64,000 nucleotides of DNA from a phage (GCA_014435945.1 GCA_014435945.1_4088.1), one strand, 5' to 3'; positions 1-16,009 are shown, numbered from the stretch's first letter. Numbers and translations are program-made. Notes: generated by a model not told the origin, from the letters alone.

Positions 1-1002
1 AATGGTAACATTAGAACCAACACCCAATGAACCAGCATAACTACTCGCATTTAAACCTGTTGCATATACACCAGAACTCGTAACTAGTATACTAGATTGT
101 GCTGGGTATCCAGTATGAATTGAATACAAAGTACCGGGTGGTAAGGTTGTACTATTATTTCCTAATACTGCTCGTGCTGTACTAGACGTAGTGTTATTAC
201 CCCATGCCCCATTATTGGCGTTCCCACCCACTAGGAACTGACGTGCTCCTGTACTTGGATTCTCCACTAAAGCACTGACTGCACCAATTGTACATACAAC
301 ATATTGTAATGTTTTTGTATATGTTGTACTTGGCTGATATAAAGTATATTGATTGTATGGAGTCCATGTATCAGTAGTACTTATACCTGATGTACTACCA
401 CCAATATATAAATTATTTTGTGTATCATAAAACATTACACAGCTATTTGTTGACTGTATTCGTGCAATATCAACATTAGGCGTGACAGCTTTTACAAATG
501 ATCCATCTGTTATTTGTTGAGTACTACCAGTACCATCAGCGAATTGTCTAGCCCCACTCCAACCAGTACTCCATATTGTATTATTATCCATTAAGAAAGT
601 AAACCAAGTAGTACCTGCATACATCTGTTTAATTGAAGTACCTGAACTTTGTGTGTACAAATTTTCAATATATTGGTTATAACTTAAAAATGATGTAGTA
701 CTAGTTTCTAAACCAATATGACCACCATATCCACAATAAAAATAATTTAAGTCCTTATCTTGAACTAACAAAGTTCCTTGTGTCATCCAGCAATCTTTGA
801 CATTTTCTCTAATTAATGTCCACGACCTTACTGCATTATTATTTCCGCGACCGAACTTCCCATAACTATTATTTCCTCGTGCGTATAGTTGACCGTCAGT
901 ATAAAGTACAACCACATCAGTATCAGTTGGTATTATTTTCTTAATTAGAAGAGGTTCAGGTGTGATATTCCCATAATCAAACAATCTAACAAAAGGTAAC
1001 AT
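1..1002 (-). CDS. RCC1-like beta-propeller repeat protein, array member (C-terminal part outside window)
   Basis: ATG at 1000-1002 with conserved SD/TATAAT cassette upstream; N-term MLPFVRLFDYGN; GQLG-type repeats. Confidence 0.7.
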   Translation of the reverse strand, partial: MLPFVRLFDYGNITPEPLLIKKIIPTDTDVVVLYTDGQLYARGNNSYGKFGRGNNNAVRSWTLIRENVKDCWMTQGTLLVQDKDLNYFYCGYGGHIGLETSTTSFLSYNQYIENLYTQSSGTSIKQMYAGTTWFTFLMDNNTIWSTGWSGARQFADGTGSTQQITDGSFVKAVTPNVDIARIQSTNSCVMFYDTQNNLYIGGSTSGISTTDTWTPYNQYTLYQPSTTYTKTLQYVVCTIGAVSALVENPSTGARQFLVGGNANNGAWGNNTTSSTARAVLGNNSTTLPPGTLYSIHTGYPAQSSILVTSSGVYATGLNASSYAGSLGVGSNVTI

Positions 1003-1073
1003 ATTTTCCTCCTTTATTCATTATACTATATTTAACCAAAAAGAAAAGCCAGTGCTCAAGTACTGGAGTAATG
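1003..1073 (-). promoter_or_regulatory. Intergenic cassette: terminator-like hairpin (CCAGT..ACTGG) + TATAAT box + AGGAGG SD
   Basis: Same cassette repeated between array genes. Confidence 0.5.
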
Positions 1074-2216
1074 TCAATAAGTATCCCAAGGTAATGGTGT
1101 CTTCCTAAATCCATACCTGGTTGTGCTCGCACCATCACCAGCAATGTATCTACCTATACCACATTGGTATAACTCTGTACTACTACATATAGCACCACCT
1201 ATAGTACCACTACTCCACTGAATTATATTAGAATATGTTATTGGTAAATCACTACATTTAGTATATATCCCAACGGTAGCACCACCACTAATACCACCAA
1301 ACATACTTCGGTTAGCACCAGTGTAATATATACCATCTGGACTCATAAATGCAGAGGTGTAAGTTGTACTGCAATCCACTGGACTTCTTATTGTATTAAG
1401 ATCGCCTGGGTATGTCCTGACACCAAAGGTGTATACATTACCATCAGTTGTAATACCATTACCTAACTGTCCACTGTTTTGTCCACCACATGTAAGCAAC
1501 AATGCAGAACCAGAAACAATTGCAGTAGCATTATACGAAGTACCCATTGCAATAGAAGCACCAGACAATAGTTTTGGAGTAACAATAGCTGTTGTATTAC
1601 CCTGGCCTAATTCACCATTGATATTTCGTCCCCATGCGTATATAGAAGTCGTATCCAATCGACATAGTACTGAACCATAACTAAACGTATATCGCATGTC
1701 ATTTACAGCAGAAGGCAAATTAACCTTAGTTGCAACACTAATAACACCACCAGTAACACCACTGTTTGCGTACATGTTACGACCATATGCATATAAAGAA
1801 CCATCTGAAGTTTTAATATGCATCATACCATCTGTACAATATAATGCATCTATACTCTCCACCGCAACCGGACCCATACTGGTAGTTATATCGGTCCACC
1901 CAAGCGTGGTAGTACTAGAAATTAAGTTATTTCCGGCGTATAGTATTCTATTATTATTAGTAACTACAACTGTATATCTGGCAGTAACACCAATTAATCG
2001 AACATCAGTATATATCTTAGACCACGCACCTAATGAATTGGTGTTTGCATCCAAAAAGCCCAACTGCCCATCTGTATTGTATCCAATACCCCATACATCA
2101 CCTGCACTGTCCAATAACACTTCATGTGAAAATCCAATCTTAAAATCTTTTATTGTAGGAACTACCGGAACTGGTGCAATATTCCCGTACTTAACCATTC
2201 TTGCAAAAGGTAACAT
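1074..2216 (-). CDS. RCC1-like beta-propeller repeat protein, array member
   Basis: 380 aa ORF; N-term MLPFARMVKYGN; repeated G-x-N-x-x-GQLG motifs; SD AGGGAGG. Confidence 0.75.
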   Translation of the reverse strand: MLPFARMVKYGNIAPVPVVPTIKDFKIGFSHEVLLDSAGDVWGIGYNTDGQLGFLDANTNSLGAWSKIYTDVRLIGVTARYTVVVTNNNRILYAGNNLISSTTTLGWTDITTSMGPVAVESIDALYCTDGMMHIKTSDGSLYAYGRNMYANSGVTGGVISVATKVNLPSAVNDMRYTFSYGSVLCRLDTTSIYAWGRNINGELGQGNTTAIVTPKLLSGASIAMGTSYNATAIVSGSALLLTCGGQNSGQLGNGITTDGNVYTFGVRTYPGDLNTIRSPVDCSTTYTSAFMSPDGIYYTGANRSMFGGISGGATVGIYTKCSDLPITYSNIIQWSSGTIGGAICSSTELYQCGIGRYIAGDGASTTRYGFRKTPLPWDTY

Positions 2217-2269
2217 AATTCCCTCCTTTATTCATTATACTATATTTAATACAAATAAGAATGCCAGTA
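2217..2269 (-). promoter_or_regulatory. Intergenic cassette: TATAAT box + SD; 9-bp-stem hairpin (2261-2283) overlaps stop codon of upstream gene, followed by T-run
   Basis: ATGCCAGTA-cttga-TACTGGCAT then tcttatttgtatt on minus strand. Confidence 0.55.
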
Positions 2270-3466
2270 TCAAGTACTGGCATTAATTGTTGGGAGTGGG
2301 AATTCTTTCATGACAGATGAACTACTTGCTGAAATATTATCAGGAGATTTCCCCGCGTAGTATAATTTATTATTAATGTACATATACAACGTTGCATCGT
2401 TCCCTGCTACAAGGGATTCACTTTTCTTAAAGTTAACACCAGCAGGTAAAATTGCTTCAACAAATGATCCTGAATCGCGTGTGGTATTATTTGCTAACTG
2501 ACCATTGTTATTATAACCAGTACTATAAATTTTACCTGAACTATAATATACAAGACCACGTGTACTAGTGTTTTCTATTCGAATGAATTCACTATCATCT
2601 GGGACTGTAGTTGATAGTACTGCGTTTAACCTATAAGCAGTTGATACATTATTATTGCCCAGTTGTCCATAACCTTGAAAACCTAGTGCATACATAGGAC
2701 ATGATTCTGGTGATGTTGGTGTTCCTTTTGTTATAATACCAATATAATTCGCACTACAAAAAATATCTACTGCTTCTACAACAGGTGTACCCTTATATTG
2801 AACCCAAGGGAATACATACGATTGTTGTCTGCCATCTGCCAAAGTACCAGAAGATGTTGTTCCTGTACGCCACATTGTATCATCAAGTTTAATAATCCAG
2901 TTAGCTGATGTAATTGATGAACAGAATTTTTTAACATTATCTACTACAAATGTAAATCTATTATAATATGATGCCGTGTTTATACCAAACTTAGCACCAG
3001 TATTATCACCTAACACATATAAACTATTATCAGTTCCTAAAATCACAGCATAATTATAACCTACGTATATCTCTTTAATTCTTGAAATTCCAAATTGTGT
3101 AAAATAGCTTGTACATTCAGTGAATGTTGTTACATTATTGGTGGTATTATTACCCAGCCAAGTATCCAAACCACTATAAAAGAATCTATCATCATTAGTG
3201 CGTATTAGACAAAAAGCGTTCATAGTACTGCACCAAAAATCTTTAACATTGCTATATATTTTTGTCCATTCAGTTACTTGATTAGTATGACCTAAACCAA
3301 AAATTCCACCATTCTGAAGACCCATAGCCCATACTGAACCATTTACATCAAGTAGCATTGTACATGTATATGAATAACCACCCGATGGGGTGACTAATTT
3401 AGTAAAATTTGGTACATATGGAATGACTACATTCCCGTACTTAACCATTCTTGCAAAAGGTAACAT
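2270..3466 (-). CDS. RCC1-like beta-propeller repeat protein, array member
   Basis: 398 aa; N-term MLPFARMVKYGN; Gly/Asn/Thr-rich repeats. Confidence 0.75.
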   Translation of the reverse strand: MLPFARMVKYGNVVIPYVPNFTKLVTPSGGYSYTCTMLLDVNGSVWAMGLQNGGIFGLGHTNQVTEWTKIYSNVKDFWCSTMNAFCLIRTNDDRFFYSGLDTWLGNNTTNNVTTFTECTSYFTQFGISRIKEIYVGYNYAVILGTDNSLYVLGDNTGAKFGINTASYYNRFTFVVDNVKKFCSSITSANWIIKLDDTMWRTGTTSSGTLADGRQQSYVFPWVQYKGTPVVEAVDIFCSANYIGIITKGTPTSPESCPMYALGFQGYGQLGNNNVSTAYRLNAVLSTTVPDDSEFIRIENTSTRGLVYYSSGKIYSTGYNNNGQLANNTTRDSGSFVEAILPAGVNFKKSESLVAGNDATLYMYINNKLYYAGKSPDNISASSSSVMKEFPLPTINAST

Positions 3467-3537
3467 ATTTCCCTCCTTTATTCATTATACTATATTTAAT
3501 TCAAAAAGAAAAGCCAGTATCAAGTACTGGCATTATG
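3467..3537 (-). promoter_or_regulatory. Intergenic cassette: terminator hairpin + TATAAT + SD
   Basis: gccagtatcaagtactggc hairpin; conserved tatagtataatgaataaaggaggg. Confidence 0.5.
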
Positions 3538-4647
3538 TTATTTTGGTAAATCAATTTTAGTAAAGACTGCAACATCCTCGCTTGCCCCTGGGATGGCGTA
3601 ATAAGAACCAGTACTATATACATCTCCGTCTTTTGTTAATATTGATGTCAAACCATCACTAAAAAGAACATCCCTAATTGCACTAACTTCAACGGGTAAT
3701 TGTAAATTTGTAGCACTATATATAGCACCAGTTTGAGAATTGTTTAATCCCAAACCACGGTTCGCCCCAACACCCTTCTGATATGTACTAGTAATTACCA
3801 TTTGTGTCGCAGTATTTAAGGCAGGTGAATTCGTCATAAACAACGGAGAACTATTCGGCAAAGTACTTACAGGAACTGCACGGAATGTAGTTGTATCTGA
3901 ACTAAGAAAGTTTGGCGTTTGACCACATACGAAATATGATGTACCATTATAGTAATTAAATGCATTACCACCTATAGCTGCATCTATTACTCCAGTACTA
4001 CGTAATCCCCACGTGTTAATTTGTGTTCGGTTCCCCGTGCCATGCTGACCCCTGTCATTCCACCCAGAACTATATAACTTATTATCTAATGTAATATACA
4101 TACTGTCATTTGCATTCGTCATTACTTTACGCACATTAGTAGCACATTGAGTTAATGTGTAAATTGATGATGAACCAATACCTAAAGCACCACGATATCC
4201 ATTAGCCCCTGCACCATAGAGTACTGAACTAGTGCTAAGTACAAATATTAAACCATACGAACATACTATATCAGCAATTTCATTTACCGATAGTACACTC
4301 GTAAACCACGCAGTCCTATCAACTAATACAGTACTGTAAGAAGTCCCAGTAGAAGACGAAAACCAATAAGTCTCACCAGCAGTCCATATAGTATTGTCAC
4401 TCTTAATAACAACAACTGTACGATCACCAGCAAAAAAATTAGTAACTCCTGTACTCACTAATCTCCATGAAGATACAGTGTTGGTATTACCATTACCAGA
4501 TTCACCACCTTGATTTCTTCCTATGTAATATAAATCATGTGAATCAGTCAATAAGAATTGACCCTGTGTGGAAGCACCAACTTTAATTATATTTTTAGGA
4601 CCAGGTGCAACATTCCCATACTCCAACATCCTTACAAAAGGTAACAT
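3538..4647 (-). CDS. RCC1-like beta-propeller repeat protein, array member
   Basis: 369 aa; N-term MLPFVRMLEYGN; 10-nt gap to upstream gene, so co-transcribed. Confidence 0.75.
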   Translation of the reverse strand: MLPFVRMLEYGNVAPGPKNIIKVGASTQGQFLLTDSHDLYYIGRNQGGESGNGNTNTVSSWRLVSTGVTNFFAGDRTVVVIKSDNTIWTAGETYWFSSSTGTSYSTVLVDRTAWFTSVLSVNEIADIVCSYGLIFVLSTSSVLYGAGANGYRGALGIGSSSIYTLTQCATNVRKVMTNANDSMYITLDNKLYSSGWNDRGQHGTGNRTQINTWGLRSTGVIDAAIGGNAFNYYNGTSYFVCGQTPNFLSSDTTTFRAVPVSTLPNSSPLFMTNSPALNTATQMVITSTYQKGVGANRGLGLNNSQTGAIYSATNLQLPVEVSAIRDVLFSDGLTSILTKDGDVYSTGSYYAIPGASEDVAVFTKIDLPK

Positions 4648-4657
4648 ATTTCTCTCC

Positions 4658-5788
4658 TTAATTTAATAATGCCCCTGGCAAATCCACTTTGACGAATTGT
4701 GCATATGCTGAGGAATTTTGATCAAAGTTTGGTCCCAATCCATAAAATGAGCTAATGCCGTCTTCATTTGTGTATATGATATAAACGTTCTTTACATCAT
4801 TTCCGCATATAAATCGAATGTCTTTCGTTTGTGTTCCCGCTGGAACATTACGAAGGTTCACAACGCCATTACTTGCATTGTTATCAGCCGCCGCAATTGG
4901 TAATTGATTTTGACCATATTGACCACGCATATTTTTTGCATCTAAACCAAACACAGTATCTGATACCGCACCAACTTTCAAAAATGAACCAAAACTATTA
5001 TTGAATGACTTTGGAAATGTACCACTATAAACACTTCTCCCATCTGATAATACCGCTGAACTGAATTTCCCGCTATTCGATATGGCAAATTCATTGTAAG
5101 GAAGTGTACCCATTTTGGTATATACAGAATATGAATTAGTGGAAGTATTATCAATAATCTTATTACCATTATATCCAATACCATACTGGTATCCGTCTGC
5201 ATCTTGAACTATACACAAAGGACCACTTGGGGTTTGTGTCAACGAAACAACACGTTCAACTTGTATATCACCAAATGTATTTCTTCGCCATGTTCTATCT
5301 ATTATAGTACTAGTATTACCCAAAGATAATGCCACACTATATAATAGATTGTTTTCAGTAAAAATGGCAACATAATATGCGTGGTTAATAACTTGCTTCA
5401 TCCCAGCATCAATAACTTCCTGTGGAATATGATCAGTAACATCCAACCAATCAAGGTTAGATGATGCAATATCTGGAGTACTGAATTTGTCAAATCTAGT
5501 TGAGCCACAAACTAGCACTCTATCATCATTTGTCAAAGCCACTGTGCTAGTCTGCATATTAGAACTGAATGATTTAACATTACTAATGTTAGACTTGTAC
5601 CAACCCTTATCAGCAGCACCCACCGTGAATCCGGTTCCCATTGATCCACTTGTACTTGTACCATAAGCCCACATCTCACCACTATATGTTAGTGCCATAC
5701 AGTGGCTTCCATTTGCTTGGAAATCCTTTATACCAGTGGGAGCAACCACTGTATTCCCATAATCAAACATTCTAACAAAAGGTAACAT
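4658..5788 (-). CDS. RCC1-like beta-propeller repeat protein, array member
   Basis: Start moved to conserved ATG (MLPFVRMFDYGN) at 5788; track start 5803 adds 5 aa. Confidence 0.72.
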   Translation of the reverse strand: MLPFVRMFDYGNTVVAPTGIKDFQANGSHCMALTYSGEMWAYGTSTSGSMGTGFTVGAADKGWYKSNISNVKSFSSNMQTSTVALTNDDRVLVCGSTRFDKFSTPDIASSNLDWLDVTDHIPQEVIDAGMKQVINHAYYVAIFTENNLLYSVALSLGNTSTIIDRTWRRNTFGDIQVERVVSLTQTPSGPLCIVQDADGYQYGIGYNGNKIIDNTSTNSYSVYTKMGTLPYNEFAISNSGKFSSAVLSDGRSVYSGTFPKSFNNSFGSFLKVGAVSDTVFGLDAKNMRGQYGQNQLPIAAADNNASNGVVNLRNVPAGTQTKDIRFICGNDVKNVYIIYTNEDGISSFYGLGPNFDQNSSAYAQFVKVDLPGALLN

Positions 5789-5863
5789 AACTAAAATCTC
5801 CATATAATAATTATAATGTATTTACAAAAAAATACCAGTACGTATTTCAGTACTGGTATAATG
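5789..5863 (-). promoter_or_regulatory. Intergenic cassette with 8-bp-stem hairpin ACCAGTAC..GTACTGGT
   Basis: Hairpin about 5833-5856 plus AT-rich tataat-like tract. Confidence 0.45.
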
Positions 5864-7045
5864 TTATGGTAAAATAATAGCTTGTAACGAACTCATACCC
5901 AATGTTGGGACACTCGCCTGTGGTGCTGGTGAATTCAATTTTGGTGATGAAACCGCATATGACATTCCTGAACCCAAATCTGGATCAAAAACTACAGCAC
6001 AATAATTCCCACTATATATAAGTCCATTCTTGTATCCTTGTGCACTTTGAATGCATTTCGTGAACGTACCAATATCTGTAGTGGCATTTATTAAGTTCCT
6101 CCCACGATAACCGCAGGTGTATATGAAATTATCATCGCCTATGTACATACTAGAATCCCCAGAAGAACTACATAGATACGACATATAAGCACGCATGTTT
6201 TTAGGAGCAACTGACAATGTACCTGCATAGAATTTATTATTCGAACCCGTAATATCACCATCACCCAATGCACCAAAACTTCCCCAGCCAGTACCGTAAT
6301 ATCTCTTATCACTCAAAAATATAATACAGTTGTTATTACACATCTTGATTTGATATATCAATGAAGGATCAACCCCAGGGAATGATTCAGTGAATGTTAG
6401 AACAGCCGGATCAGTACTAGCATTACATTGATGATATGTATTAGTACCAGCGGACAAGATTGTTCCATTAGCTAACAGAATTCTCGCAGTACCAGTACCA
6501 GCAGTACAAGCAACTGCACTTCCTGCACTTCCGGTGTATATTTGTCTGAAAGTAAAGAAACCAACAGTTTTACTTCCCTGCCCACTCCAACCAGTATTAT
6601 CAACTCCACACGCCCATACTGAACCATCTTGCATGATCATCATTACACCAAAGCGTTCTATTGAAATATAAACAATCTTCGTTGTATCAACTGCACTAAA
6701 TCTAGAAGTTATATCAGTCCATACCTTAACACTTACCGCCGTCGCACTGGAAGTAGGATCTTCACCAGCTATCATTATCCTCCCATTGTTAGTAAGATAC
6801 ATTGTCTGACTATAACCAGTACTACAAAACTTAACACTATTAGTCTCTGGAACTTTTAACCACTCGTTGTAACGTGTTACGTTAGTGTTATTACCTAACT
6901 GATAATAGTTATTCATCCCAGATACATATAACACACCATCCTTTATTAAACTATAAGTCGCACTATAGTCACTACAGGTATAACGTGTACCCACAGGTCG
7001 CTCAACGACGTTCCCATAATCAAACATTCTAACAAAAGGTAACAT
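5864..7045 (-). CDS. RCC1-like beta-propeller repeat protein, array member
   Basis: 393 aa; N-term MLPFVRMFDYGN. Confidence 0.75.
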   Translation of the reverse strand: MLPFVRMFDYGNVVERPVGTRYTCSDYSATYSLIKDGVLYVSGMNNYYQLGNNTNVTRYNEWLKVPETNSVKFCSTGYSQTMYLTNNGRIMIAGEDPTSSATAVSVKVWTDITSRFSAVDTTKIVYISIERFGVMMIMQDGSVWACGVDNTGWSGQGSKTVGFFTFRQIYTGSAGSAVACTAGTGTARILLANGTILSAGTNTYHQCNASTDPAVLTFTESFPGVDPSLIYQIKMCNNNCIIFLSDKRYYGTGWGSFGALGDGDITGSNNKFYAGTLSVAPKNMRAYMSYLCSSSGDSSMYIGDDNFIYTCGYRGRNLINATTDIGTFTKCIQSAQGYKNGLIYSGNYCAVVFDPDLGSGMSYAVSSPKLNSPAPQASVPTLGMSSLQAIILP

Positions 7046-7118
7046 AATAAAATCTCCGTAATTAAATTATATAGTATTTACAAAAAATACCAGTACATAT
7101 TTCAGTACTGACCTATTA
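7046..7118 (-). promoter_or_regulatory. Intergenic cassette with hairpin
   Basis: ccagtacatatttcagtactg hairpin; AT-rich promoter-like tract. Confidence 0.45.
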
Positions 7119-8240
7119 TTAAAAGGGCAACGGTAACTCAGTAAAAGTACTTACGTCCGGTAAACCATACATTGAATTAGCATCACCACAGTAATACCAC
7201 TTCGTAGAATCATGTACCACCGATAAACGCTGTGCACATAACACTTCCTGTATGTCATTAAACACCATCGGGACTAACTCATATGTATCCGCAAATGAAG
7301 ATACACCACCACTCGCATGAAAAGTATTCGTCCCAGCATAAAATAACTGATTAGTGTTCTTACCCACAGCAAATGTCATCAATATCCCATCATTCGCCCA
7401 TAAAGAAGAAAACTTATCAACACTACCAGAAAGCTCTGTGTAAGTACTCGTAATGGCACTCGCAGCCGCCGCATTACCCATCTGTTTATTCAAGTTCTGT
7501 CCAGCAATAAAATATCTCGTGCGTGCACTAGAATCAGTATATAATAACCCAGTGTTCGTAGTCATCATTCCAATGTCCTTAATCGTCATACCAGTCTGTG
7601 AATAACTTAGATACGAAGTTAAATTAACATTATTACCCAACGAACCGTTATCACTCATACCACAACGATGTAATATACCACTTGTATCAACGTAGATTGT
7701 ACTAACTAAACTCGTATACAACTCTTGTACATTATTCGCAATAAACACAGCAGTCGCCTTATTACTAACCCCACCAAATGATAGGTTATTATCAAATCCC
7801 TTAGCGTATAATTGATTATTAGTAGTCAATAATCCAATCGTGAAATAAGACATTTTCATATCCCTTACTGTACTCAAATCTACTGCCCCAAATTGGTGCG
7901 TAACATCTGTCCATGTGAAAATCTGTGCACTACCAACACCACCCGTTTCAAACCATTTGTCACCACAGTACAATATGCGATTACCCTTAGTAAAGATAAC
8001 TGTTACCAATCCACTACCACACGCAAACTTTACATCACTTCTAACCTTCGTCCAATTAAGTACATAGGTAGTGGTGTTATTACCTATACCTAACTTGCCA
8101 TAACGGTTATAACCACGCACCCACAAATCACCACTCTTAGTAATTAATAGTAATGCGTCTCCTGTACTTATTATTCGAAATCCCGAACTAGGATCAGGTG
8201 TAATATTTCCATAATCAAACAATCTAACAAAAGGTAACAT
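7119..8240 (-). CDS. RCC1-like beta-propeller repeat protein, array member
   Basis: 373 aa; N-term MLPFVRLFDYGN; 9-nt gap to upstream gene. Confidence 0.75.
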   Translation of the reverse strand: MLPFVRLFDYGNITPDPSSGFRIISTGDALLLITKSGDLWVRGYNRYGKLGIGNNTTTYVLNWTKVRSDVKFACGSGLVTVIFTKGNRILYCGDKWFETGGVGSAQIFTWTDVTHQFGAVDLSTVRDMKMSYFTIGLLTTNNQLYAKGFDNNLSFGGVSNKATAVFIANNVQELYTSLVSTIYVDTSGILHRCGMSDNGSLGNNVNLTSYLSYSQTGMTIKDIGMMTTNTGLLYTDSSARTRYFIAGQNLNKQMGNAAAASAITSTYTELSGSVDKFSSLWANDGILMTFAVGKNTNQLFYAGTNTFHASGGVSSFADTYELVPMVFNDIQEVLCAQRLSVVHDSTKWYYCGDANSMYGLPDVSTFTELPLPF

Positions 8241-8249
8241 GATTTTCTC

Positions 8250-9443
8250 CTATGATTGCCATAACTGCGTTGGCATTAATGTTAATGTTTTAATTACGGA
8301 AGTACCATCCGGTAAGTTACCACCTGAACCGTTAAAGCCCCCACATGCATATAATTTATAATCTTTAGTTATAATTATTGTTCTGGACCAGTCTTTGGAT
8401 GCCATAAGAACATTGTCATATCCACCCTGTATCGCACTTAAAGAAAACGCCCCCCACGAAGTAATTACTGTTGTATTTCCCGTCCCTTCTTGACCATATG
8501 TATTGATGCCTGCACTCCTGACATATGATGGGTATTGAGCCATAGGTGCACCAATTGTTGAGTTACCCATATTACTAGGACACAGGAAACCATCACTAAT
8601 ATTCACTATAACCTGTGAATTCTGAACTGTAGTTAATTGGTTTGTAGTTGAAGTAGTACCATTCCCAGCTTGTCCAGAATTGTTTCTACCACTCCAGTAC
8701 ACCCTACCGGCAGTGAACCACCAGGTAACATCATAAGTAGCACTTATATAATCGACGTTGGATCGTATTAATTTATTAGTAAAAACGTATGAGCTAGTCC
8801 CACCACCACTTTCACCAAAGTTATCCTTACCACAAAACCATGCTTCTTTATTTGTTTTGAGATAGTGCGTACCCTGTAATGAACACGCCAATTGAGAAAC
8901 TTCACCCATACCAGTAACAACTGTTAGTACTGGAATGGAATTTTGGTTACCTGTTCCACATTCGGCATTTGCATTTTTACCACAAACAACTACTCTTCCA
9001 TCGTGTAGTAATATTCTAGTACTTTCACCTATATGTACACTCTTGATTAAATTAGCGTGTACATTTATTTTGTTAAATGCGGCAGTAACATCAGTCCATG
9101 TTCTAAAATAACCATTAACTGGAGTTGCATCTCCATAATCGGGGAATGCTACAGTATTCCCTGTGAAATATATTCTATTATCCAAGTCAATCATCAATGA
9201 GCCATGAACGCCTAACCAAAAGGCTGCACAGTGCGTTGCCAGTACTGTAAAAGTAGAAACTGTCGATTGATTCCCTAGACCTAATTGGCTCAAGTTATTA
9301 CCACCATAACCGTATAGTGTATTCGTGGGCTTATGTAGATACATAGCATTAGTATAATGTTGCTGTAAAACATCAGTGAACTCAACTGGATCAGGAATAG
9401 GCAGTTTATTCCCGTATTTAACCATTCTTGCAAAAGGTAACAT
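8250..9443 (-). CDS. RCC1-like beta-propeller repeat protein, array member
   Basis: 397 aa; N-term MLPFARMVKYGN. Confidence 0.75.
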   Translation of the reverse strand: MLPFARMVKYGNKLPIPDPVEFTDVLQQHYTNAMYLHKPTNTLYGYGGNNLSQLGLGNQSTVSTFTVLATHCAAFWLGVHGSLMIDLDNRIYFTGNTVAFPDYGDATPVNGYFRTWTDVTAAFNKINVHANLIKSVHIGESTRILLHDGRVVVCGKNANAECGTGNQNSIPVLTVVTGMGEVSQLACSLQGTHYLKTNKEAWFCGKDNFGESGGGTSSYVFTNKLIRSNVDYISATYDVTWWFTAGRVYWSGRNNSGQAGNGTTSTTNQLTTVQNSQVIVNISDGFLCPSNMGNSTIGAPMAQYPSYVRSAGINTYGQEGTGNTTVITSWGAFSLSAIQGGYDNVLMASKDWSRTIIITKDYKLYACGGFNGSGGNLPDGTSVIKTLTLMPTQLWQS

Positions 9444-9513
9444 ATTTCCCTCCTTTATTCATTATACTATATTTAATCAAAAATAAATGCCAGTACACAG
9501 TACTGGCATAATA
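9444..9513 (-). promoter_or_regulatory. Intergenic cassette: hairpin + TATAAT + SD
   Basis: gccagtacacagtactggc; tatagtataatgaataaaggaggg. Confidence 0.5.
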
Positions 9514-10692
9514 TTATCGGTTAAATTTAAAATCTGTTATGTGTGTCCATGTATGATTTAATGGTGTACTCATTGGTGTAAAGCCAGCAGGGTCTGACAA
9601 AGCTGTACCACGTGCGTACATAAATTGATTGCCAGTACAATCCATTATAGCATAAGAACGTTTTGCTGTGCCACATTTGAACCCAACTGCACTACTTGGG
9701 GTCGGTAATACTTCAAATGTAGGTGCATTTGAACTACCACCCCCATCTTTTGTTCCAGCTATGTACAGAACTCCATTAGTATCAATGATTAAGTTAGTCC
9801 AATATACTTGTTCTCGTCCAGCAAAAAAATATGTTAAATCACCTGGTACAAATGGTAACGTTCCTTTATATATTGTGGTATTAACATCCACTGGTGCACC
9901 AGCTACACCCCATGAACTCATATAGTTTCTCCCACTTGCGTAGAATGTAGTTCCTTTACCGTAAAGTATTAATGTTGCTAGACTTGTTCGCATTGCATTA
10001 TATTCAAACTCAGGATCATCAGTAGCGTCCTTAAAAATCTGTGTCCATGTTGTTATATTGCCAGTAGTTGTAACACCCATTTGATAATAATAATTATCAC
10101 CAGTAGCATAGAATTCTTTAGGGCCAGTTTGTACAATTGCATTCCTATTAGTTAACCAAAAATCTAATGTATTAGTCTTGATCTTGGTTGGTGTGTAATT
10201 CGCCACGGTATTTCCTTTTCCGAAATAACCATTAGCGTTATTTCCATGACCCCATAAATCACCATTAGTTGTGCGTAGGAATAATGTACCAATATTGAAT
10301 CCAACTTTTTCTATAGTACTTATGTCAATACCAACAGTCGTGTACTTCGTTGTAAAATCTTGAAAAGTACTCCAATAATTAGATGAACCATTAAACATGG
10401 TTTGTTTACCAGTGTACTTCACTTTATTATCTTTAGTGATAAGTAATGTCCCCCACACTGACGCGAACATCAACTTAACATTTTCCATAACAAAGTATGG
10501 CTTACCGTATGCTGACGCGGTAGAGTTCAAACCTAATAGTTGTCCATTATTACTACAACCCCATACTTCGCCGTTATCCAAAAGCATCAACATAGTAGGT
10601 TTGCCAGATGATACATCCAAAAAGAAATCTTTTGGTGTTGGTACACCAGGTGTAATATTTCCATAATCAAACATTCTAACAAAAGGTAACAT
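9514..10692 (-). CDS. RCC1-like beta-propeller repeat protein, array member
   Basis: 392 aa; N-term MLPFVRMFDYGN. Confidence 0.75.
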   Translation of the reverse strand: MLPFVRMFDYGNITPGVPTPKDFFLDVSSGKPTMLMLLDNGEVWGCSNNGQLLGLNSTASAYGKPYFVMENVKLMFASVWGTLLITKDNKVKYTGKQTMFNGSSNYWSTFQDFTTKYTTVGIDISTIEKVGFNIGTLFLRTTNGDLWGHGNNANGYFGKGNTVANYTPTKIKTNTLDFWLTNRNAIVQTGPKEFYATGDNYYYQMGVTTTGNITTWTQIFKDATDDPEFEYNAMRTSLATLILYGKGTTFYASGRNYMSSWGVAGAPVDVNTTIYKGTLPFVPGDLTYFFAGREQVYWTNLIIDTNGVLYIAGTKDGGGSSNAPTFEVLPTPSSAVGFKCGTAKRSYAIMDCTGNQFMYARGTALSDPAGFTPMSTPLNHTWTHITDFKFNR

Positions 10693-10764
10693 ATTTCCCT
10701 CCTTTATTCATTATACTATATTTAATCAAAAATAAAAGCCAGTACTCTGTACTGGCATATTAAT
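10693..10764 (-). promoter_or_regulatory. Intergenic cassette: hairpin + TATAAT + SD
   Basis: gccagtactctgtactggc; conserved cassette. Confidence 0.5.
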
Positions 10765-11913
10765 TCATTGTATAAATGACATATCTACTTCTGTATAATT
10801 AAGAACGTTCTGTCCAGAAATACCACCCATTACTACTATTGCAATGCCACAATAATATAATTTTCCAGTATCCGTAAGTATAAGTGAACCAGATGGACTG
10901 CGTACCAAATTACACGAAGTATTAAACGAAGTATATGAAGGAGTATAGGAGTACTGATTATTATTATTACCAACACCTAATTGCCCAAACCCATTCGATC
11001 CAGAAGCATATAGAACTTCATCTGCTTTGACAATATGTGATGCCATGTTACCAACACAAGTATATAGAGTATAAACTCCTGAACTCAATAATGTCGGAGT
11101 TTTATATTGTATATCTGTAGATGTAGAAGTACCACCTGTACCAAATTCGTTCCCATATTGTGCACCGAACTGTTTACCACAAGCGTACAAATTATTATCC
11201 GATTTGATAAAAAATGTACTCTGATAACTTACATTAAAATCTATAACATCCGAAGAAATCATCGTCACCCCAGTAATAGAAGTTTGATTACCCGTGCCCA
11301 ACTGGTAGTAATAGTTAAAACCACAACCCCATAAAGTATTATCTTCTCGCAAATAAATGTTACCAACTGCCTTTTTAACCGAAGTTATAGTATCTACTCT
11401 TTTGAATGTGTTAAAAGAATTAATGTTTGTGCCATCACCAAATGATGATATGTTCGATATATTGTTAGCTCCACAACAATACAATGTACCATCGTTTGTT
11501 ATCAAATTCACCTTCATATCATAAAAACTACTCATGTATTTTATATCAGAAACATTAATACCACTTGATGTTATCCACGTAGTACAGTCCGTCCACAAAG
11601 TTTTTCTATCAGTTACACCAGTGAATGCCTTCGTGTTACCAGTGATAAAAACTTTTCCAGTACCTTTCTCTTCATACAATTGACAATCACTACTGTTATC
11701 TTCCAATAGAACTCGTTTAACATTCTCCGCACAAAGAATAAATTTACTCGATGCTACACCTGTACCAGTACCCCAATTCGTCGCAGAAGATGCATACAAC
11801 TTATCAGTATAAGTATCATGAAGATACATAGAATCACTGGAATATATTTTAAAACGCCCTTCTTTCTCAGGTATAATATTCCCATAATCAAACATTCTAA
11901 CAAAAGGTAACAT
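10765..11913 (-). CDS. RCC1-like beta-propeller repeat protein, first array member
   Basis: Start moved to conserved ATG at 11913 (MLPFVRMFDYGN); SD AGGAGG. Confidence 0.72.
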   Translation of the reverse strand: MLPFVRMFDYGNIIPEKEGRFKIYSSDSMYLHDTYTDKLYASSATNWGTGTGVASSKFILCAENVKRVLLEDNSSDCQLYEEKGTGKVFITGNTKAFTGVTDRKTLWTDCTTWITSSGINVSDIKYMSSFYDMKVNLITNDGTLYCCGANNISNISSFGDGTNINSFNTFKRVDTITSVKKAVGNIYLREDNTLWGCGFNYYYQLGTGNQTSITGVTMISSDVIDFNVSYQSTFFIKSDNNLYACGKQFGAQYGNEFGTGGTSTSTDIQYKTPTLLSSGVYTLYTCVGNMASHIVKADEVLYASGSNGFGQLGVGNNNNQYSYTPSYTSFNTSCNLVRSPSGSLILTDTGKLYYCGIAIVVMGGISGQNVLNYTEVDMSFIQ

Positions 11914-11961
11914 ATTTCCTCCTTTATTCATTATATCATATTTACCCCATAAACAAAACCC

Positions 11962-11990
11962 TTGACATCCTTTCAGTACTGGTGTACTAT
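11962..11990 (+). promoter_or_regulatory. sigma70-like promoter for family A operon (TTGACA-N17-TACTAT)
   Basis: TTGACA 11962-11967, TACTAT 11985-11990, then SD AAGGAG and ATG 12016; divergent from RCC1 array. Confidence 0.55.
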
Positions 11991-12015
11991 AGAAGGAATA
12001 TAAGGAGAACTGTAC

Positions 12016-12243
12016 ATGACAACTACACTTAAGTACTACCTCAATACTCTAAATGAACTAGAGTACGCGAAGTTTCTCGCGGATAGTTCGTGGCTAATTG
12101 AGCTAAAAACACATAACAGTACTGGATGTAACCTTATGCTGAACAATGCACTTGATACCCTTGTAGTGAGTATTTTACACAGCAACATCTGCGGGGATAG
12201 CAATAAACAATTATCAAAAATCTTAGTACTGGTAGCTCTATGA
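12016..12243 (+). CDS. small protein, paralog family A
   Basis: 75 aa; SD AAGGAG; family-like N-term KYYLNTL. Confidence 0.6.
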   Translation: MTTTLKYYLNTLNELEYAKFLADSSWLIELKTHNSTGCNLMLNNALDTLVVSILHSNICGDSNKQLSKILVLVAL

Positions 12244-12452
12244 ACACTATGAACATTGAACAGTACTACATTGATGCACTACCAACAAAAGGTCTACGAG
12301 AAAGCCTACTGTATACACAAAATAATTATATAAACCTCAAACATTGTCCTAAACTCTTGAACTCGTACAGGAATAATAAAATAAGAAATGCTGTACAAGG
12401 GGTAGAAAGTATGCAATACTATTACATCCTAACCCTTTTAATCGAACACTAA
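12240..12452 (+). CDS. small protein, paralog family A
   Basis: 70 aa; overlaps upstream stop; QYYIDALP. Confidence 0.6.
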   Translation: MNTMNIEQYYIDALPTKGLRESLLYTQNNYINLKHCPKLLNSYRNNKIRNAVQGVESMQYYYILTLLIEH

Positions 12453-12453
12453 T

Positions 12454-12639
12454 ATGTATAAAGAATTCTACTGTAGTAAGCTGCACAAACAATACAGAGA
12501 TTCATTTCCCAATGAACCTATGGATATGAATAGTCCCTTTTATAAATTTGACTTCAGACTGGAGACACGTTATGCAATAGAACATCAATTTCCTGAAACT
12601 AAGTACTTATCTATCATGAACCTCATCTTTAAGTTCTAA
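12454..12639 (+). CDS. small protein, paralog family A
   Basis: 61 aa; MYKEFY N-term. Confidence 0.6.
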   Translation: MYKEFYCSKLHKQYRDSFPNEPMDMNSPFYKFDFRLETRYAIEHQFPETKYLSIMNLIFKF

Positions 12640-12650
12640 AAGAGTACTAT

Positions 12651-12863
12651 ATGAAAACTATGAACATACACCAGTACTACTTAGATATTCTCCCTAAAGA
12701 TGTACAGTTCATCCTTAAACAAGAATACAGTACTTTAAAAAACCTTAAAAGAACCGCACCGAATGTATTAATCCTGCACCAAGAAAATGTAGTTGATAAT
12801 ATTCTACAAGGTGTACCAGGGACCGAGTACTTTAACATAATAAGGCTAATTACATTACCATGA
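12651..12863 (+). CDS. small protein, paralog family A
   Basis: 70 aa; QYYLDILP; close paralog of 12240. Confidence 0.6.
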   Translation: MKTMNIHQYYLDILPKDVQFILKQEYSTLKNLKRTAPNVLILHQENVVDNILQGVPGTEYFNIIRLITLP

Positions 12864-13045
12864 ATCATATATTATACTATTACCAAAATCTATCCGACAG
12901 GGACAAGTACACCCACAACTCCAATGTATGGTACTACAAACGCGGTAGTATAAGAGACAAACAACATTACTTCTGTATTGCTATAAAAGAAGCACTAACA
13001 ACTAAGTACACGTACAGAGCAGTACTGAAACTTATTGATATGTAA
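12860..13045 (+). CDS. small protein, paralog family A
   Basis: 61 aa; C-term YRAVLKLIDM. Confidence 0.6.
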   Translation: MNHILYYYQNLSDRDKYTHNSNVWYYKRGSIRDKQHYFCIAIKEALTTKYTYRAVLKLIDM

Positions 13046-13055
13046 AGAGAATACT

Positions 13056-13238
13056 ATGAGCATTGAATTGTACTTAAGTAAATTACAGCCTGGCGATAGA
13101 TTCATCTACAATAAGTTCGAATTCAACTACAAGAACGGGAGCAACAAATATCGTCGAGGATACCTATATACAAGCACAAGAGATGCACAAAACGAAAAGT
13201 ACACATACAGAGAAGTACTTAAACTAATCTCTATTTGA
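13056..13238 (+). CDS. small protein, paralog family A
   Basis: Start moved to ATG 13056 (track start is TTG); C-term YREVLKLISI. Confidence 0.58.
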   Translation: MSIELYLSKLQPGDRFIYNKFEFNYKNGSNKYRRGYLYTSTRDAQNEKYTYREVLKLISI

Positions 13239-13246
13239 GGTAATAT

Positions 13247-13432
13247 ATGAACACATTTGAGTACTATACAAATAAACTATCTATGCCTGAAAGATCTCAT
13301 CTCTATGTGTGGAGAAATGCGTATAAAAGCGGCAATAAACTTATACAAAGAAATTCCCTTACAGTGTGTACAAATTTAATTAAAGCAGAGTACCGCACAT
13401 ATATTGAAGTACTCAAACTGATAGCAATATAA
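13247..13432 (+). CDS. small protein, paralog family A
   Basis: 61 aa; MNTFEYYTNKL. Confidence 0.6.
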   Translation: MNTFEYYTNKLSMPERSHLYVWRNAYKSGNKLIQRNSLTVCTNLIKAEYRTYIEVLKLIAI

Positions 13433-13440
13433 GGTACTCT

Positions 13441-13620
13441 ATGCAAGAATTCTATATCTATAACCTCCAGCACAAAGATAGATACAACTATAATAAATTC
13501 CAAAGGTACTACACAGTCGGGAACAAAAGAGATAAAAAACGTTATCTACTCTCGTGTACAGTAGAAGCACAAAACGAAAAGTACAGGTACAGAGAAGTAC
13601 TTAAACTAATCTCAATCTAA
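13441..13620 (+). CDS. small protein, paralog family A (59 aa, below track cutoff)
   Basis: Hand-translated MQEFYIYNL...YREVLKLISI; fills gap in array. Confidence 0.55.
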   Translation: MQEFYIYNLQHKDRYNYNKFQRYYTVGNKRDKKRYLLSCTVEAQNEKYRYREVLKLISI

Positions 13621-13627
13621 GGTAGAC

Positions 13628-13816
13628 ATGAACACTTTTGAGTACTACTTCAATAAACTAAACCACATAGAACAAAGTATGCACAACTCATTTATTCAGC
13701 ACCATCAATCATCTGCATCTGGAATTAAAAATATATCGATTGAGATTATAACTACCCGTGTACTGTCATCTGAACGTTATATGTATATTGATGTACTGAA
13801 ACTCATCTCTATGTAA
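13628..13816 (+). CDS. small protein, paralog family A
   Basis: 62 aa; MNTFEYYFNKL. Confidence 0.6.
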   Translation: MNTFEYYFNKLNHIEQSMHNSFIQHHQSSASGIKNISIEIITTRVLSSERYMYIDVLKLISM

Positions 13817-13824
13817 GGAATAAT

Positions 13825-14004
13825 ATGCAAGAATACTATATAGAACACATAAACATTAAAGACCGTTTCATGTACGACACCTTCGTGAAGTACTACAACC
13901 TGGCAACTAACAGTACTAAAAATATTAATCTCAATAGCTGCATTCATCACGCACTAACAAAAGATAATCCCTTCAGGGAAATCCTCGCTCTCGCATCTGT
14001 ATAA
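13825..14004 (+). CDS. small protein, paralog family A (59 aa, below track cutoff)
   Basis: Hand-translated MQEYYIEHI...; fills gap. Confidence 0.55.
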   Translation: MQEYYIEHINIKDRFMYDTFVKYYNLATNSTKNINLNSCIHHALTKDNPFREILALASV

Positions 14005-14014
14005 AGGAAACCAA

Positions 14015-14674
14015 ATGAAACTTAATGCACACAGCAAACAATACCTTAAGCACTTTAAGTACCTCAACAGTATTCAAGCAGAATCTTTTACATCTGCATA
14101 TACGTATCACCCAAATGTACTAAAGAAACGAAATAAAAAGAAAAAATCCAGAAATGTTCTCGTATCTAAGAACCTCAAATCGTACTTGAAGAAAAATAAT
14201 ATAGCTCTTGCTTTTATTAATATCTATAATACTGATTTAAAAGTATTGAGTACTAATACCAGCACAAAAGCACTAAAGAATGCATCTATCTATATACACA
14301 TGGATAATATCCCGTGTACTATAATTCTATCTTTCGGGAATGTATACTTCTTCGGGAATTGTAATAGCACCCATGATATCAGTACTGCACAATTCCAAAT
14401 CGGAGATATGTACTGCATGGGTTCAGAAAAAATACACGATAACATGCACTTCTTCCAAAAGCAACGTACTAACGAAACTGATACAGTACTGCAATTCCTC
14501 AAAGAACTACAAAACAAAGAATTAACACCAGAAGAAGAATTCATGTACAGTACTGTAATCGATAATCCAGAACTCTATAAAAACGCGTACAAACTAACAA
14601 AACATGTACAGGAACTTATCAGTACTGATAAGAAATTTCATAACCTCATTACGTATATTACAAACTATGTATAA
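14015..14674 (+). CDS. hypothetical protein (219 aa) inserted in family A array
   Basis: ORF with lysine-rich stretch KKRNKKKKSRN; no family A signature. Confidence 0.55.
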   Translation: MKLNAHSKQYLKHFKYLNSIQAESFTSAYTYHPNVLKKRNKKKKSRNVLVSKNLKSYLKKNNIALAFINIYNTDLKVLSTNTSTKALKNASIYIHMDNIPCTIILSFGNVYFFGNCNSTHDISTAQFQIGDMYCMGSEKIHDNMHFFQKQRTNETDTVLQFLKELQNKELTPEEEFMYSTVIDNPELYKNAYKLTKHVQELISTDKKFHNLITYITNYV

Positions 14675-14849
14675 AGAATACTACAAAGATAAAATCCCAA
14701 TGCATCTACAACACCATATACCAAACGTTGCATTGGGTATCAAAGATCACACAAAGATAATGTTCCAACAATGTACTAAGTACACGCTCATATACGATGA
14801 TAATCCATATATGCTGTACTACGTAGTAATGCTAACATTCAGGTACTAA
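14667..14849 (+). CDS. small protein, paralog family A
   Basis: Start moved to ATG 14667 (MYKEYYKDKIP), overlapping upstream stop. Confidence 0.58.
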   Translation: MYKEYYKDKIPMHLQHHIPNVALGIKDHTKIMFQQCTKYTLIYDDNPYMLYYVVMLTFRY

Positions 14850-14850
14850 T

Positions 14851-15030
14851 ATGCACAAATATAAAGAATTCTACCTCTCGTACCTTAATTCCGATATAGT
14901 AACATCCAATACATTCAGTACTAAAATTATCTATAATGAAGTAATGAAAGAATGTATTAAAGGTGCTATTAACCCTAAAGATACGTATGACTTGTACTAT
15001 GCAGTACTAACCCTTGTTTTCACGAAATAA
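14851..15030 (+). CDS. small protein, paralog family A (59 aa)
   Basis: Hand-translated MHKYKEFYLSYL... Confidence 0.55.
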   Translation: MHKYKEFYLSYLNSDIVTSNTFSTKIIYNEVMKECIKGAINPKDTYDLYYAVLTLVFTK

Positions 15031-15038
15031 CACATAAT

Positions 15039-15230
15039 ATGAATAACCACAAAGAATACTACATAGAGAAACTCCCAATGTATCTACAACACCTTGTACC
15101 AACAGAACCATTGCGTATAGAAAAAGACTACGAAAAAGACTATTTCATTAAGTGCACTAAATCCTCGATAGATATTGAGGACTATAATAGAGTACTGTAT
15201 CACATCCTTTTACTAATATATAAGTACTAA
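15039..15230 (+). CDS. small protein, paralog family A
   Basis: 63 aa; MNNHKEYYIEKLP. Confidence 0.6.
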   Translation: MNNHKEYYIEKLPMYLQHLVPTEPLRIEKDYEKDYFIKCTKSSIDIEDYNRVLYHILLLIYKY

Positions 15231-15240
15231 AGAGAACAAT

Positions 15241-15429
15241 ATGAATAACCACAAAGAATACTACACACAATTTCTCCCCAGCATTTTTGAACACTACGCC
15301 AGATATAAAGTCCCCCTGGATAACGATTTGGCAGTACTGGGATTCAATAATTGCATAGAACGCAGTATAGAAAATAGTAGTAGCTATGACCAATTATATA
15401 ACACTATCCTACTTATATTCAGGTACTAA
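15241..15429 (+). CDS. small protein, paralog family A
   Basis: 62 aa; MNNHKEYYTQFLP. Confidence 0.6.
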   Translation: MNNHKEYYTQFLPSIFEHYARYKVPLDNDLAVLGFNNCIERSIENSSSYDQLYNTILLIFRY

Positions 15430-15430
15430 T

Positions 15431-15619
15431 ATGCATAAAGAATACTACACAAAATATTTCCCAATGTACCTCAGTACTAATCTATTAGATAAACCTCGCG
15501 GTATCAATGCACAAAACGATAAAGTGTACTTTACTATGTGCACTAAAGCATGTATACTAGATTTTGATAGCTATCATCGAGTACTATACCACACTCTGTA
15601 CCTCGCGTTCGTGTACTAA
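15431..15619 (+). CDS. small protein, paralog family A
   Basis: Start moved to ATG 15431 (MHKEYYTKYFP). Confidence 0.58.
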   Translation: MHKEYYTKYFPMYLSTNLLDKPRGINAQNDKVYFTMCTKACILDFDSYHRVLYHTLYLAFVY

Positions 15620-15629
15620 AGAGGCCAAT

Positions 15630-15836: not shown

Positions 15837-16008
15837 CTATAAAGAATTCTACATAAGCCATCTGGATATAAACTCCCAAATGCTTATACCACTAAAACCA
15901 ATAGATTTCAAGGATAAGAAAAATACCCAACAATTTATTGACCATACTGACTGTGCGGTGAACCAAAATTATATGTACTACATTCTCGCCCTAATATACA
16001 GGTACTAA
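15829..16008 (+). CDS. small protein, paralog family A (59 aa)
   Basis: Hand-translated MNNYKEFYISHL...LIYRY. Confidence 0.55.
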   Translation: MNNYKEFYISHLDINSQMLIPLKPIDFKDKKNTQQFIDHTDCAVNQNYMYYILALIYRY

Positions 16009-16009
16009 T

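Follow-up and report, generated by a model that had tools for sequence, protein, structure and literature searches.

What would cause ten neighbouring genes, whose products have little sequence in common, to keep the same first 12 residues? The question is raised by a 64,000-nt stretch of phage DNA, here called the window when the whole stretch is meant, in which a tandem array of genes for RCC1-like β-propeller proteins fills positions 1-11913, each gene opening with a conserved 12-residue peptide, the tag. By DNA and protein similarity the window is assigned to an Asteriusvirus-type jumbo coliphage of ~350 kb, the closest relative being phage Turkey3 (99-100% across shared genes). It is firmly concluded that the 12-mer is a modular signal carried on interchangeable β-rich modules that reach virions, and incorporation or docking, as the most economical role for the tag, is also the most likely. 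The more specific proposal, that the tag is a lineage-specific docking peptide which mounts interchangeable binding modules on the virion, probably on the outside, is judged to be evenly balanced between right and wrong.

The array consists of ten head-to-tail genes on the minus strand with MLPF starts in series (ATGs at 11913, 10692, 9443, 8240, 7045, 5788, 4647, 3466, 2216 and 1002):

10765..11913, minus strand: gene 1, tag MLPFVRMFDYGN, linker and RCC1-like propeller, 382 residues
9514..10692, minus strand: gene 2, tag MLPFVRMFDYGN and RCC1-like propeller, 392 residues
8250..9443, minus strand: gene 3, tag MLPFARMVKYGN and RCC1-like propeller, 397 residues
7119..8240, minus strand: gene 4, tag MLPFVRLFDYGN and RCC1-like propeller, 373 residues; the protein chosen for modelling
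5864..7045, minus strand: gene 5, tag MLPFVRMFDYGN and RCC1-like propeller, 393 residues
4658..5788, minus strand: gene 6, tag MLPFVRMFDYGN and RCC1-like propeller, 376 residues; start at 5788, not at the upstream ATG 5803
3538..4647, minus strand: gene 7, tag MLPFVRMLEYGN and RCC1-like propeller, 369 residues
2270..3466, minus strand: gene 8, tag MLPFARMVKYGN and RCC1-like propeller, 398 residues
1074..2216, minus strand: gene 9, tag MLPFARMVKYGN and RCC1-like propeller, 380 residues
1..1002, minus strand: gene 10, tag MLPFVRLFDYGN and RCC1-like propeller; 3' end beyond the window start, 334 residues visible

An earlier note on this DNA had described ten consecutive minus-strand genes of 369-398 residues with an invariant N-terminus. 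The series of ten stands, but only nine genes are complete at those lengths, the tenth (1002..1) leaving the window at its start, and the tag is conserved rather than invariant: it reads MLPF[VA]R[ML][FVL][DKE]YGN, with 8 of 12 positions fixed among the ten paralogs and two main subtypes, VRMFDYGN and ARMVKYGN. Pairwise identity of the tag averages 83% (minimum 67%) against 19% (13-28%) for the remainder of the proteins, nowhere else in the paralogs do 12 alignment columns approach the identity of the tag, and of the 11 columns that are invariant when 15 sequences are aligned, 7 fall in residues 1-12. The conservation of the tag is well above chance. Two open reading frames (ORFs) are listed with longer N-termini (MEILVMLPF and MNKGGNMLPF); the real start of both is the MLPF ATG, because the upstream ATG falls within a conserved promoter/ribosome-binding site (RBS) box, ATGAATAAAGGAGG, and the extra codons are this box in translation. 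A 196-residue ORF on the plus strand at 1696-2286, antisense to gene 9, is probably spurious and a product of the composition of RCC1-like genes.

The array runs on past the window, with 17 tagged genes in series in Turkey3, and a comparison of copy number among relatives, as the earlier note had suggested, gives a wide range: 2 tagged genes in GAP32, 3 in XaC1, 5 in fHe-Yen9-04, 10 in Hallingskeid, ~13 in phAPEC6, 16 in Munch and the 17 of Turkey3. The size of the array is less unusual than that note had held, as multi-copy RCC1-like arrays had been published (121Q_234-248 and eleven copies in phAPEC6; eleven to thirteen overall; PMC7247149, PMC5259590), with one RCC1-like copy in GAP32 and none in CBB (PMC5259590). 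The circular record of phAPEC6 repeats the same two array genes at both of its ends (3-2360 in L008 and 7179-9536 in L009), so that gene counts taken from that record are inflated by two. The array of 121Q (15225-20046) has several split or truncated members, namely gp240/239, gp237 and gp235/234, which is consistent with rapid gene turnover or with sequencing frameshifts.

Is it the peptide that is conserved or the DNA that encodes it? If the conserved 36 nt, as part of the repeated promoter/RBS cassette, acted only as nucleic acid, in translation initiation or to supply homology for recombination, the peptide would be without function. Within this genus the copies of the tag DNA average 88% identity and are contiguous with a conserved intergenic cassette, and recombination junctions, described below, are located at the tag. 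However, this explanation is highly improbable for three reasons. First, in a codon comparison of 81 unique tagged proteins from nine phages (hosts Escherichia, Cronobacter, Erwinia, Salmonella, Yersinia and Xanthomonas) the residues are kept while two to four codons are used for most of them: M1 is present in 81 of 81 (one codon), P3 in 81 of 81 (three codons), F4 in 78 (two), R6 in 71 (three), Y10 in 75 (two; TAT 31, TAC 44), G11 in 75 (four) and N12 in 74 (two). Second, many Munch genes adjoin directly, with no intergenic cassette between them, and are still tagged, as are genes 4 and 7 of the window; among the Munch paralogs synonymous sites vary freely and MIPF[TA]RIL.YGN is kept. Third, the Yersinia (MLPFPIIS...) and Xanthomonas (MFPIPIIS.YGN) tags keep the residue pattern but not the nucleotides. 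Given that the amino acids are constant while the codons vary, also across genera, selection is read from these comparisons as acting on the tag at the level of the peptide. The tag pattern is present across at least six phage groups. Conservation through synonymous codon changes and between genera also disfavours the shared regulatory peptide that the earlier note had offered as an option.

Within the phage the tag is confined to the array: no tag was found beyond it in ~315 kb of phAPEC6 (all but 305-343 kb, whose homologous region is covered by the window) or in the rest of the 64-kb window, and three loose matches to MxP[FYI] in this search were internal and at chance level. A search of a representative library of 1.84 billion proteins found 77 of the 150 best clusters to be tagged; in 74 of these the called protein opens with the tag, in three the tag starts no later than residue 12, and the complete tagged proteins in this library were all 361-399 residues in length. 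The search used a 40-residue profile in which the first blade dominates and therefore recovered only RCC1-type tagged proteins, a family that is, on these sequences, large and very diverse. When IMG/VR was scanned for the DNA pattern of the tag, the only match besides 121Q itself was a chance one on an unrelated contig. Tagged RCC1-like genes occur in jumbo phages of Escherichia, Salmonella, Erwinia, Yersinia, Serratia, Cronobacter and Xanthomonas and in one jumbo phage of Klebsiella aerogenes. Searches of phage collections did not find them in RaK2 or K64-1, which carry ~ten depolymerase receptor-binding proteins (PMC6872550), and the distribution of depolymerase sets and of tagged RCC1-like genes may be complementary.

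The tag is not restricted to one type of body. It heads four families: PHROG 4219 (RCC1); PHROG 12615, Kelch-repeat propellers of 287-315 residues with Pfam E-values down to 6.5e-30; PHROG 6011, named 'virion structural protein', 210-233 residues, in GAP32 (gp2), Erwinia phage Hallingskeid and Salmonella phage Munch; and PHROG 4474, 245 residues. The model of GAP32 gp2 (predicted local distance difference test score, pLDDT, 84.4) has a disordered tag followed by a concanavalin A (ConA)-like lectin jelly-roll, with fold matches to the lectin-like domain of the botulinum-toxin receptor-binding region, the carbohydrate-binding domain of arabinanase AbnA, the lectin domains of trans-sialidases and CBM40. 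These models and family assignments present the tag as a separate, portable module that is predicted to be disordered.

The bodies in the window are predicted to be seven-bladed RCC1-like propellers, and the blade signature from which the earlier note had read this fold is borne out by Pfam, PHROG 4219, AlphaFold2 and Foldseek together. PF25390 (RCC1-like domain) matches all ten proteins with E-values of 1e-8 to 1e-23, under its gathering score of 150 bits; nine of the ten score above the gathering thresholds of RCC1 (PF00415) and/or RCC1_2 (PF13540), gene 4 having the PF25390 match only; and all ten match PHROG 4219. The structure prediction that the note had proposed as a check returned an all-β propeller: the AlphaFold2 model of gene 4, for which 15 sequences were aligned, has a pLDDT of 87.9 and a predicted template modelling (TM) score of 0.87, with residues 20-373 forming the seven blades, and its best Foldseek matches in the PDB are UVR8, RCC1, the RCC1-like domains (RLDs) of HERC2, and RPGR (E 1e-20 to 1e-16, TM ~0.75). 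A PDB profile search with the family reached E-values down to 5e-28, while sequence and fold searches of the PDB found no solved phage structure with this family.

Propellers are often closed by an N-terminal strand. This raises the possibility that the N-terminus is a 'velcro' closure strand, pairing with a C-terminal F-x-x-[LIV]-x-L-P strand and conserved for folding; such a C-terminal motif does exist, weakly conserved. Yet residues 1-19 of gene 4, the tag and a Pro-rich linker, lack secondary structure in the otherwise confident model and stay below 50 in pLDDT there, Kelch propellers and a lectin jelly-roll are headed by this peptide too, and eukaryotic RCC1-like domains align to the family profile only from position 16 onward. 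With the tag disordered in two AlphaFold2 models and present on non-propeller folds, the closure strand is scarcely credible and was rejected. Given the disorder of the tag in the model and its lack of a eukaryotic counterpart, it is read as a phage-specific appendage and not a strand of a blade.

Do these proteins reach the particle? Virion proteomics, another check proposed in the earlier note, is available from published data. Mass spectrometry of phAPEC6 virions detected gp003, 005, 006, 007, 009, 010, 549 and 551, with 1-5 unique peptides each (PMC7247149, Table 1), and each of these eight starts with the tag; gene 1 of the window is the ortholog of gp549 and gene 9 that of gp005. GAP32 gp1 was detected by mass spectrometry (PMC5259590), GAP32 gp2 is annotated as a virion structural protein, and JP4_581 and JP4_577 are listed in the JP4 virion dataset. 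Tagged proteins are thus virion components in phAPEC6, GAP32 and JP4, and the phage of the window is judged through its orthologs and paralogs. The outcome that the earlier note had named as refuting, proteomics with none of these proteins in virions, is therefore not what the published data give.

Presence in virions, together with RCC1 repeat homology, could be taken to mean that the database name is right and that these RCC1-like proteins are 'DNA condensation' factors, giving order to the 350-kb genome inside the particle, and a role in an ordered DNA or inner-body structure has been suggested (PMC7247149). This is very unlikely on several grounds. The name derives from the eukaryotic fold homolog only. 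RCC1 is an exchange factor for Ran, and to our knowledge bacteria have no Ran. The array proteins are not basic (isoelectric point, pI, 5.1-8.2; K+R 6-7.6%; G/N/S/T 36-41%), and their N-terminus is the hydrophobic tag, not the basic tail looked for in RCC1 proper as a Ran guanine nucleotide exchange factor. Furthermore, paralogs that are ~19% identical and are gained and lost freely among close relatives, down to the single copy in GAP32 and none in CBB, are hard to fit to a conserved packaging role, and Kelch and lectin modules bear the same tag. The resemblance to eukaryotic RCC1, UVR8, the HERC2 RLDs and RPGR lies in the seven-bladed fold and the repeat signature, with only 14-17% identity, no Ran or chromatin context and no counterpart of the tag; for a likeness of fold without that context, the 'chromosome condensation' name should not be transferred.

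How the modules come to be exchanged is suggested by the DNA between them. Seven of the nine intergenic spaces are cassettes of 53-75 nt made up of a hairpin (stem built on CCAGTAC..GTACTGG), a U-run and a promoter/RBS box of the form (T/G)TAAATA-N3-4-TATAAT-...-AAGGAGG, which ends 5-6 nt before the ATG and of which a 26-mer occurs six times against none expected. From the upstream side of gene 1 onwards these elements are:

11914..11990, minus strand: variant promoter/RBS box upstream of gene 1, GTAAATATGATATAATGAATAAAGGAGG
within 11914..11990, plus strand: divergent promoter for the small-gene array, TTGACA..CAGTACTG
10693..10764, minus strand: cassette, terminator hairpin GCCAGTAC..GTACTGGC, U-run and box TTAAATATAGTATAATGAATAAAGGAGG
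9444..9513, minus strand: cassette, hairpin, U-run and promoter/RBS box
8241..8249, minus strand: spacer of 9 nt, RBS only and no cassette; gene 4 is tagged all the same
7046..7118, minus strand: cassette of subtype B, hairpin, U-run and GTAAATACTATATAAT
5789..5863, minus strand: cassette of subtype B, hairpin, U-run and GTAAATACATTATAAT
4648..4657, minus strand: spacer of 10 nt, RBS only and no cassette; gene 7 is tagged all the same
3467..3537, minus strand: cassette, hairpin, U-run and promoter/RBS box
2217..2284, minus strand: cassette, promoter/RBS box and a hairpin that reaches into the last codons of gene 8
1003..1073, minus strand: cassette, weaker hairpin, U-run and promoter/RBS box

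Comparison with Turkey3 places recombination junctions at these elements. The two alignments between the genomes (window 4603-10758 and 10647-14500) have 112 bp in common, exactly the extent of one cassette and its tag, namely cassette 10693..10764 and the tag that follows it; Turkey3 would therefore have one additional gene between two copies of the cassette-plus-tag repeat. On the left the homology breaks off 45 nt into gene 7, just beyond the tag. In addition, one ortholog of gene 4 is 95% identical and 6 of its 17 differences fall in residues 5-18 (p ~1e-4), which is read as a swapped tag subtype. Taken from these alignments, the junctions of both the indel and the tag swap are located at tag and cassette.

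The cassettes resemble the promoter-early stem-loop (PeSL) cassettes of T4-type phages, in which ~70 bp of terminator hairpin and promoter are repeated between genes and bound indels (PMC2839356, PMC4122927). They differ in two respects: the homology block reaches into the coding tag, and the promoter part, TAAATA with TATAAT, resembles the late-type box of this phage and lacks the early-looking form TTGACA-N8-9-CAGTACTG-TATAAT. In phAPEC6, which encodes a gp55-like late sigma factor, structural genes (capsid, sheath, baseplate and others) have a T4-late-like ATAAATA 26-45 nt upstream of the ATG, a motif shared by the array box. Late expression of the array is plausible from these motifs.

From these observations a mechanism can be proposed. 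Each gene would encode three parts: a hydrophobic peptide of 12 residues, with the general pattern M-[LIF]-P-[FI]-x-[R/I]-[MLI]-x-x-[YF]-G-N, a short Pro-rich linker and one self-contained β-rich binding module, which is always an RCC1-like propeller in the window and may be a Kelch propeller, a ConA-like lectin jelly-roll or a member of the fourth family in relatives. The tag, unstructured alone, would bind one common acceptor site on the particle, probably as an added strand, so that any cassette bearing it would have its product mounted on the virion, and paralogs would compete for the same sites to give a particle with mixed lectin-like adhesion modules. The likeliest site would be the outside of the particle, for example the hair-like fibres or the capsomer centres of 121Q and phAPEC6. 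Most genes would form their own transcription unit, eight being preceded by a cassette or promoter/RBS box with late-type TAAATA/TATAAT and a Shine-Dalgarno sequence and followed by a putative terminator hairpin, and genes 4 and 7 would follow the preceding gene after a spacer of 9-10 nt. Cassette and 36 tag-coding nt could together serve as the homology through which recombination inserts, deletes and swaps modules between phages.

Five considerations favour surface display: every body with an assigned fold is of a classic binding type, be it one of the two kinds of propeller or the lectin jelly-roll; the bodies are near-neutral, not basic, and rich in Gly/Asn/Ser/Thr; RCC1-like propellers form parts of the tail fibres of other phages, as in the tail-fibre proteins of Littlefix and of PollyC, which in PollyC also has a T7 tail-fibre N-terminal domain; short N-terminal docking peptides are an established route for mounting extra receptor-binding proteins; and 121Q and phAPEC6 bear hair-like fibres on capsid and tail and a decoration at each hexamer centre, although to regard these as candidate sockets for the tag is speculation. 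The modules would bind glycans or the host surface. Docking peptides of 7-11 residues are known for secondary receptor-binding proteins and some have been validated experimentally (PMC6872550, PMC13352976), the systems being the hepta- and undecapeptides of K1E, K1-5 and SP6, those of KP32, KP34 and K11, that of Menlow, and the groups of PhiK64-1 and RaK2, which belong to the same broad jumbo-phage group as the phage of the window. In these, as here, a short, mostly hydrophobic N-terminal peptide is common to otherwise unrelated virion proteins and specific to the group, and the modules recombine; several binding specificities are thereby allowed per particle. Here, in contrast, the bodies are monomeric propellers of ~40 kDa or lectin folds and not trimeric β-helix depolymerases, there are 10-18 copies and not 2-11, and the genes lie far from the tail-fibre cluster, with no T4gp10-like acceptor identified by Pfam among nine phAPEC6 proteins.

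A second lineage bears on the specificity of the tag. The Vequintavirinae phage A5-4 has three tandem RCC1-like genes (3791-7289) with a different common tag, MLEM[LM]NLG, and their counterparts in phage W70, W70_237-239, are three tandem PHROG 4219 virion proteins with spectrum counts of 141-233 (PMC11370258). These share with the array the family, the tandem ~40-kDa paralogs, the presence in virions and a short common N-terminus, and differ in the tag itself (MLPFxRMxxYGN here) and in having three copies only. A tag that is constant inside a lineage and different between lineages is as expected for a peptide that fits a lineage-specific partner. The earlier note's conserved anchor, docking variable binding domains, is thus supported by a portable, predicted-disordered module on four bodies, by virion presence and by documented precedent; the docking itself and its site are what we infer. 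A further step, in which up to ~18 monomeric lectin-like modules compete for one multi-copy socket on the hair-like fibres or capsomer centres to give a mixed adhesin coat that is reshuffled between phages by recombination at tag and cassette, is tentative and rather unlikely.

Several observations weigh against docking on the outside of the particle. The three proteomes establish presence in purified particles only and do not distinguish inside from outside, and the phAPEC6 peptide counts are low for each paralog (1-5). The array genes are distant from the tail and baseplate module. No T4gp10-like branching domain was found by Pfam in nine large phAPEC6 structural proteins, although a sequence search may miss one. 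The bodies are predicted to be monomeric globular domains, whereas the known docking peptides are carried by trimeric tailspikes, and the disorder of the tag is a prediction for the monomer only. Finally, both 121Q and phAPEC6 have an inner body, for which the authors of the phAPEC6 study named the RCC1-like proteins as candidates (PMC7247149).

The last point leads to the main rival reading of the same peptide, close to the targeting tag for packaging or ejection that the earlier note had also offered, in which it is a capsid-targeting sequence (CTS) like that of T4 and directs the proteins into the prohead core and perhaps the inner body, to be ejected with the DNA, for example against host defence. 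The array has the architecture of the T4 internal-protein locus (IPI, IPII, IPIII and Alt): a short constant N-terminus (~10 residues in T4), diverse bodies, virion presence, and hyperplasia of the locus, in which PeSL-like terminator-promoter cassettes lie where indels begin and end. Moreover, the head-assembly machinery is T4-related: the major capsid protein of the phage group is of T4 type, and the group has a prohead core protease as well as the late sigma factor already mentioned. Nevertheless, targeting to the capsid interior is considered unlikely. In the major capsid protein of phAPEC6 (25122-26297) the sequence L-T-E stands at residue 43, and cleavage there would leave 37.2 kDa; published processing is from 42.2 to 37 kDa, and this agreement in size implies T4-like prohead-protease specificity in the phage group. 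Such a site, [LI]-x-E, is absent from the first 50 residues in nine of the ten tagged proteins. The tag itself has no sequence similarity to the T4 CTS, MKTYQEFIAE, and its Pro3 and Gly11 are not helix-like. The T4 internal proteins are small and charged, whereas stable 40-kDa propellers and lectin jelly-rolls, typical extracellular binding folds, could travel through the tail tube only after unfolding. Lastly, RCC1-like propellers occur in the tail fibres of other phages, and the same family is found in virions of the 140-kb Vequintavirinae, for which we know of no inner body.

Of the picture drawn here, the array of RCC1-like genes and the presence of their products in virions had been published before. 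A full-text literature search on the tag strings found no paper (matches to MIPFAR were unrelated), and papers that describe RCC1-like arrays make no mention of a shared N-terminus. The portable tag with its predicted disorder, its four body families and its restriction to the array appear to be new, as do the alternative tag of the Vequintavirinae and the recombination junctions at the tag; the system as such would be a variant of known docking-peptide or targeting-sequence systems. Dozens of jumbo-phage genomes annotate these genes as 'DNA condensation' or 'regulator of chromosome condensation', a label that rests on the eukaryotic fold name only, and the portable tag recasts the array as exchangeable, virion-borne binding modules. 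The array is a candidate explanation for the host and adhesion breadth of therapeutic Asteriusvirus phages, and the junctions would carry PeSL-type module shuffling beyond the classical T4-like phages. Should the tag prove to be a docking plug, it could serve to put foreign domains on the particles of jumbo phages; if combinatorial display holds, the array would amount to a library-style system of surface recognition, distinct from classical trimeric tail fibres.

The remainder of the window adds some minor observations. Neither Rfam nor a tRNA scan gave a match in the window. Divergent from the RCC1-like array, on the plus strand at 12016-16999, lies a tandem series of ~24 small genes of 59-75 residues with the family-like pattern M..KE(F/Y)Y at the N-terminus and (V/I)L.LI at the C-terminus. 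The palindromic octamer CAGTACTG occurs 61 times in the window against 0.83 expected (maximum 4 in 100 shuffles), most densely at 12-38 kb (for example 17691-17698, 22435-22442, 23603-23610 and 35348-35355). It often fills the spacer of a sigma70-like promoter against the -10 box (TTGACA-N8-9-CAGTACTG-TATAAT) and also makes the stems of the array terminator hairpins, and its sequence context suggests a phage-specific early-promoter or regulator-binding element. Many copies lie in a stretch of ~2 kb at ~17000-19000 that is poor in ORFs and contains a change of sign in GC skew, perfect sigma70 consensus promoters at 17677-17704 (plus strand) and 18686-18659 (minus strand), and, near 18120-18200, short direct repeats such as ACGGCTAAACGGCTAGAT; this stretch could be a control region, an origin or a region related to packaging.

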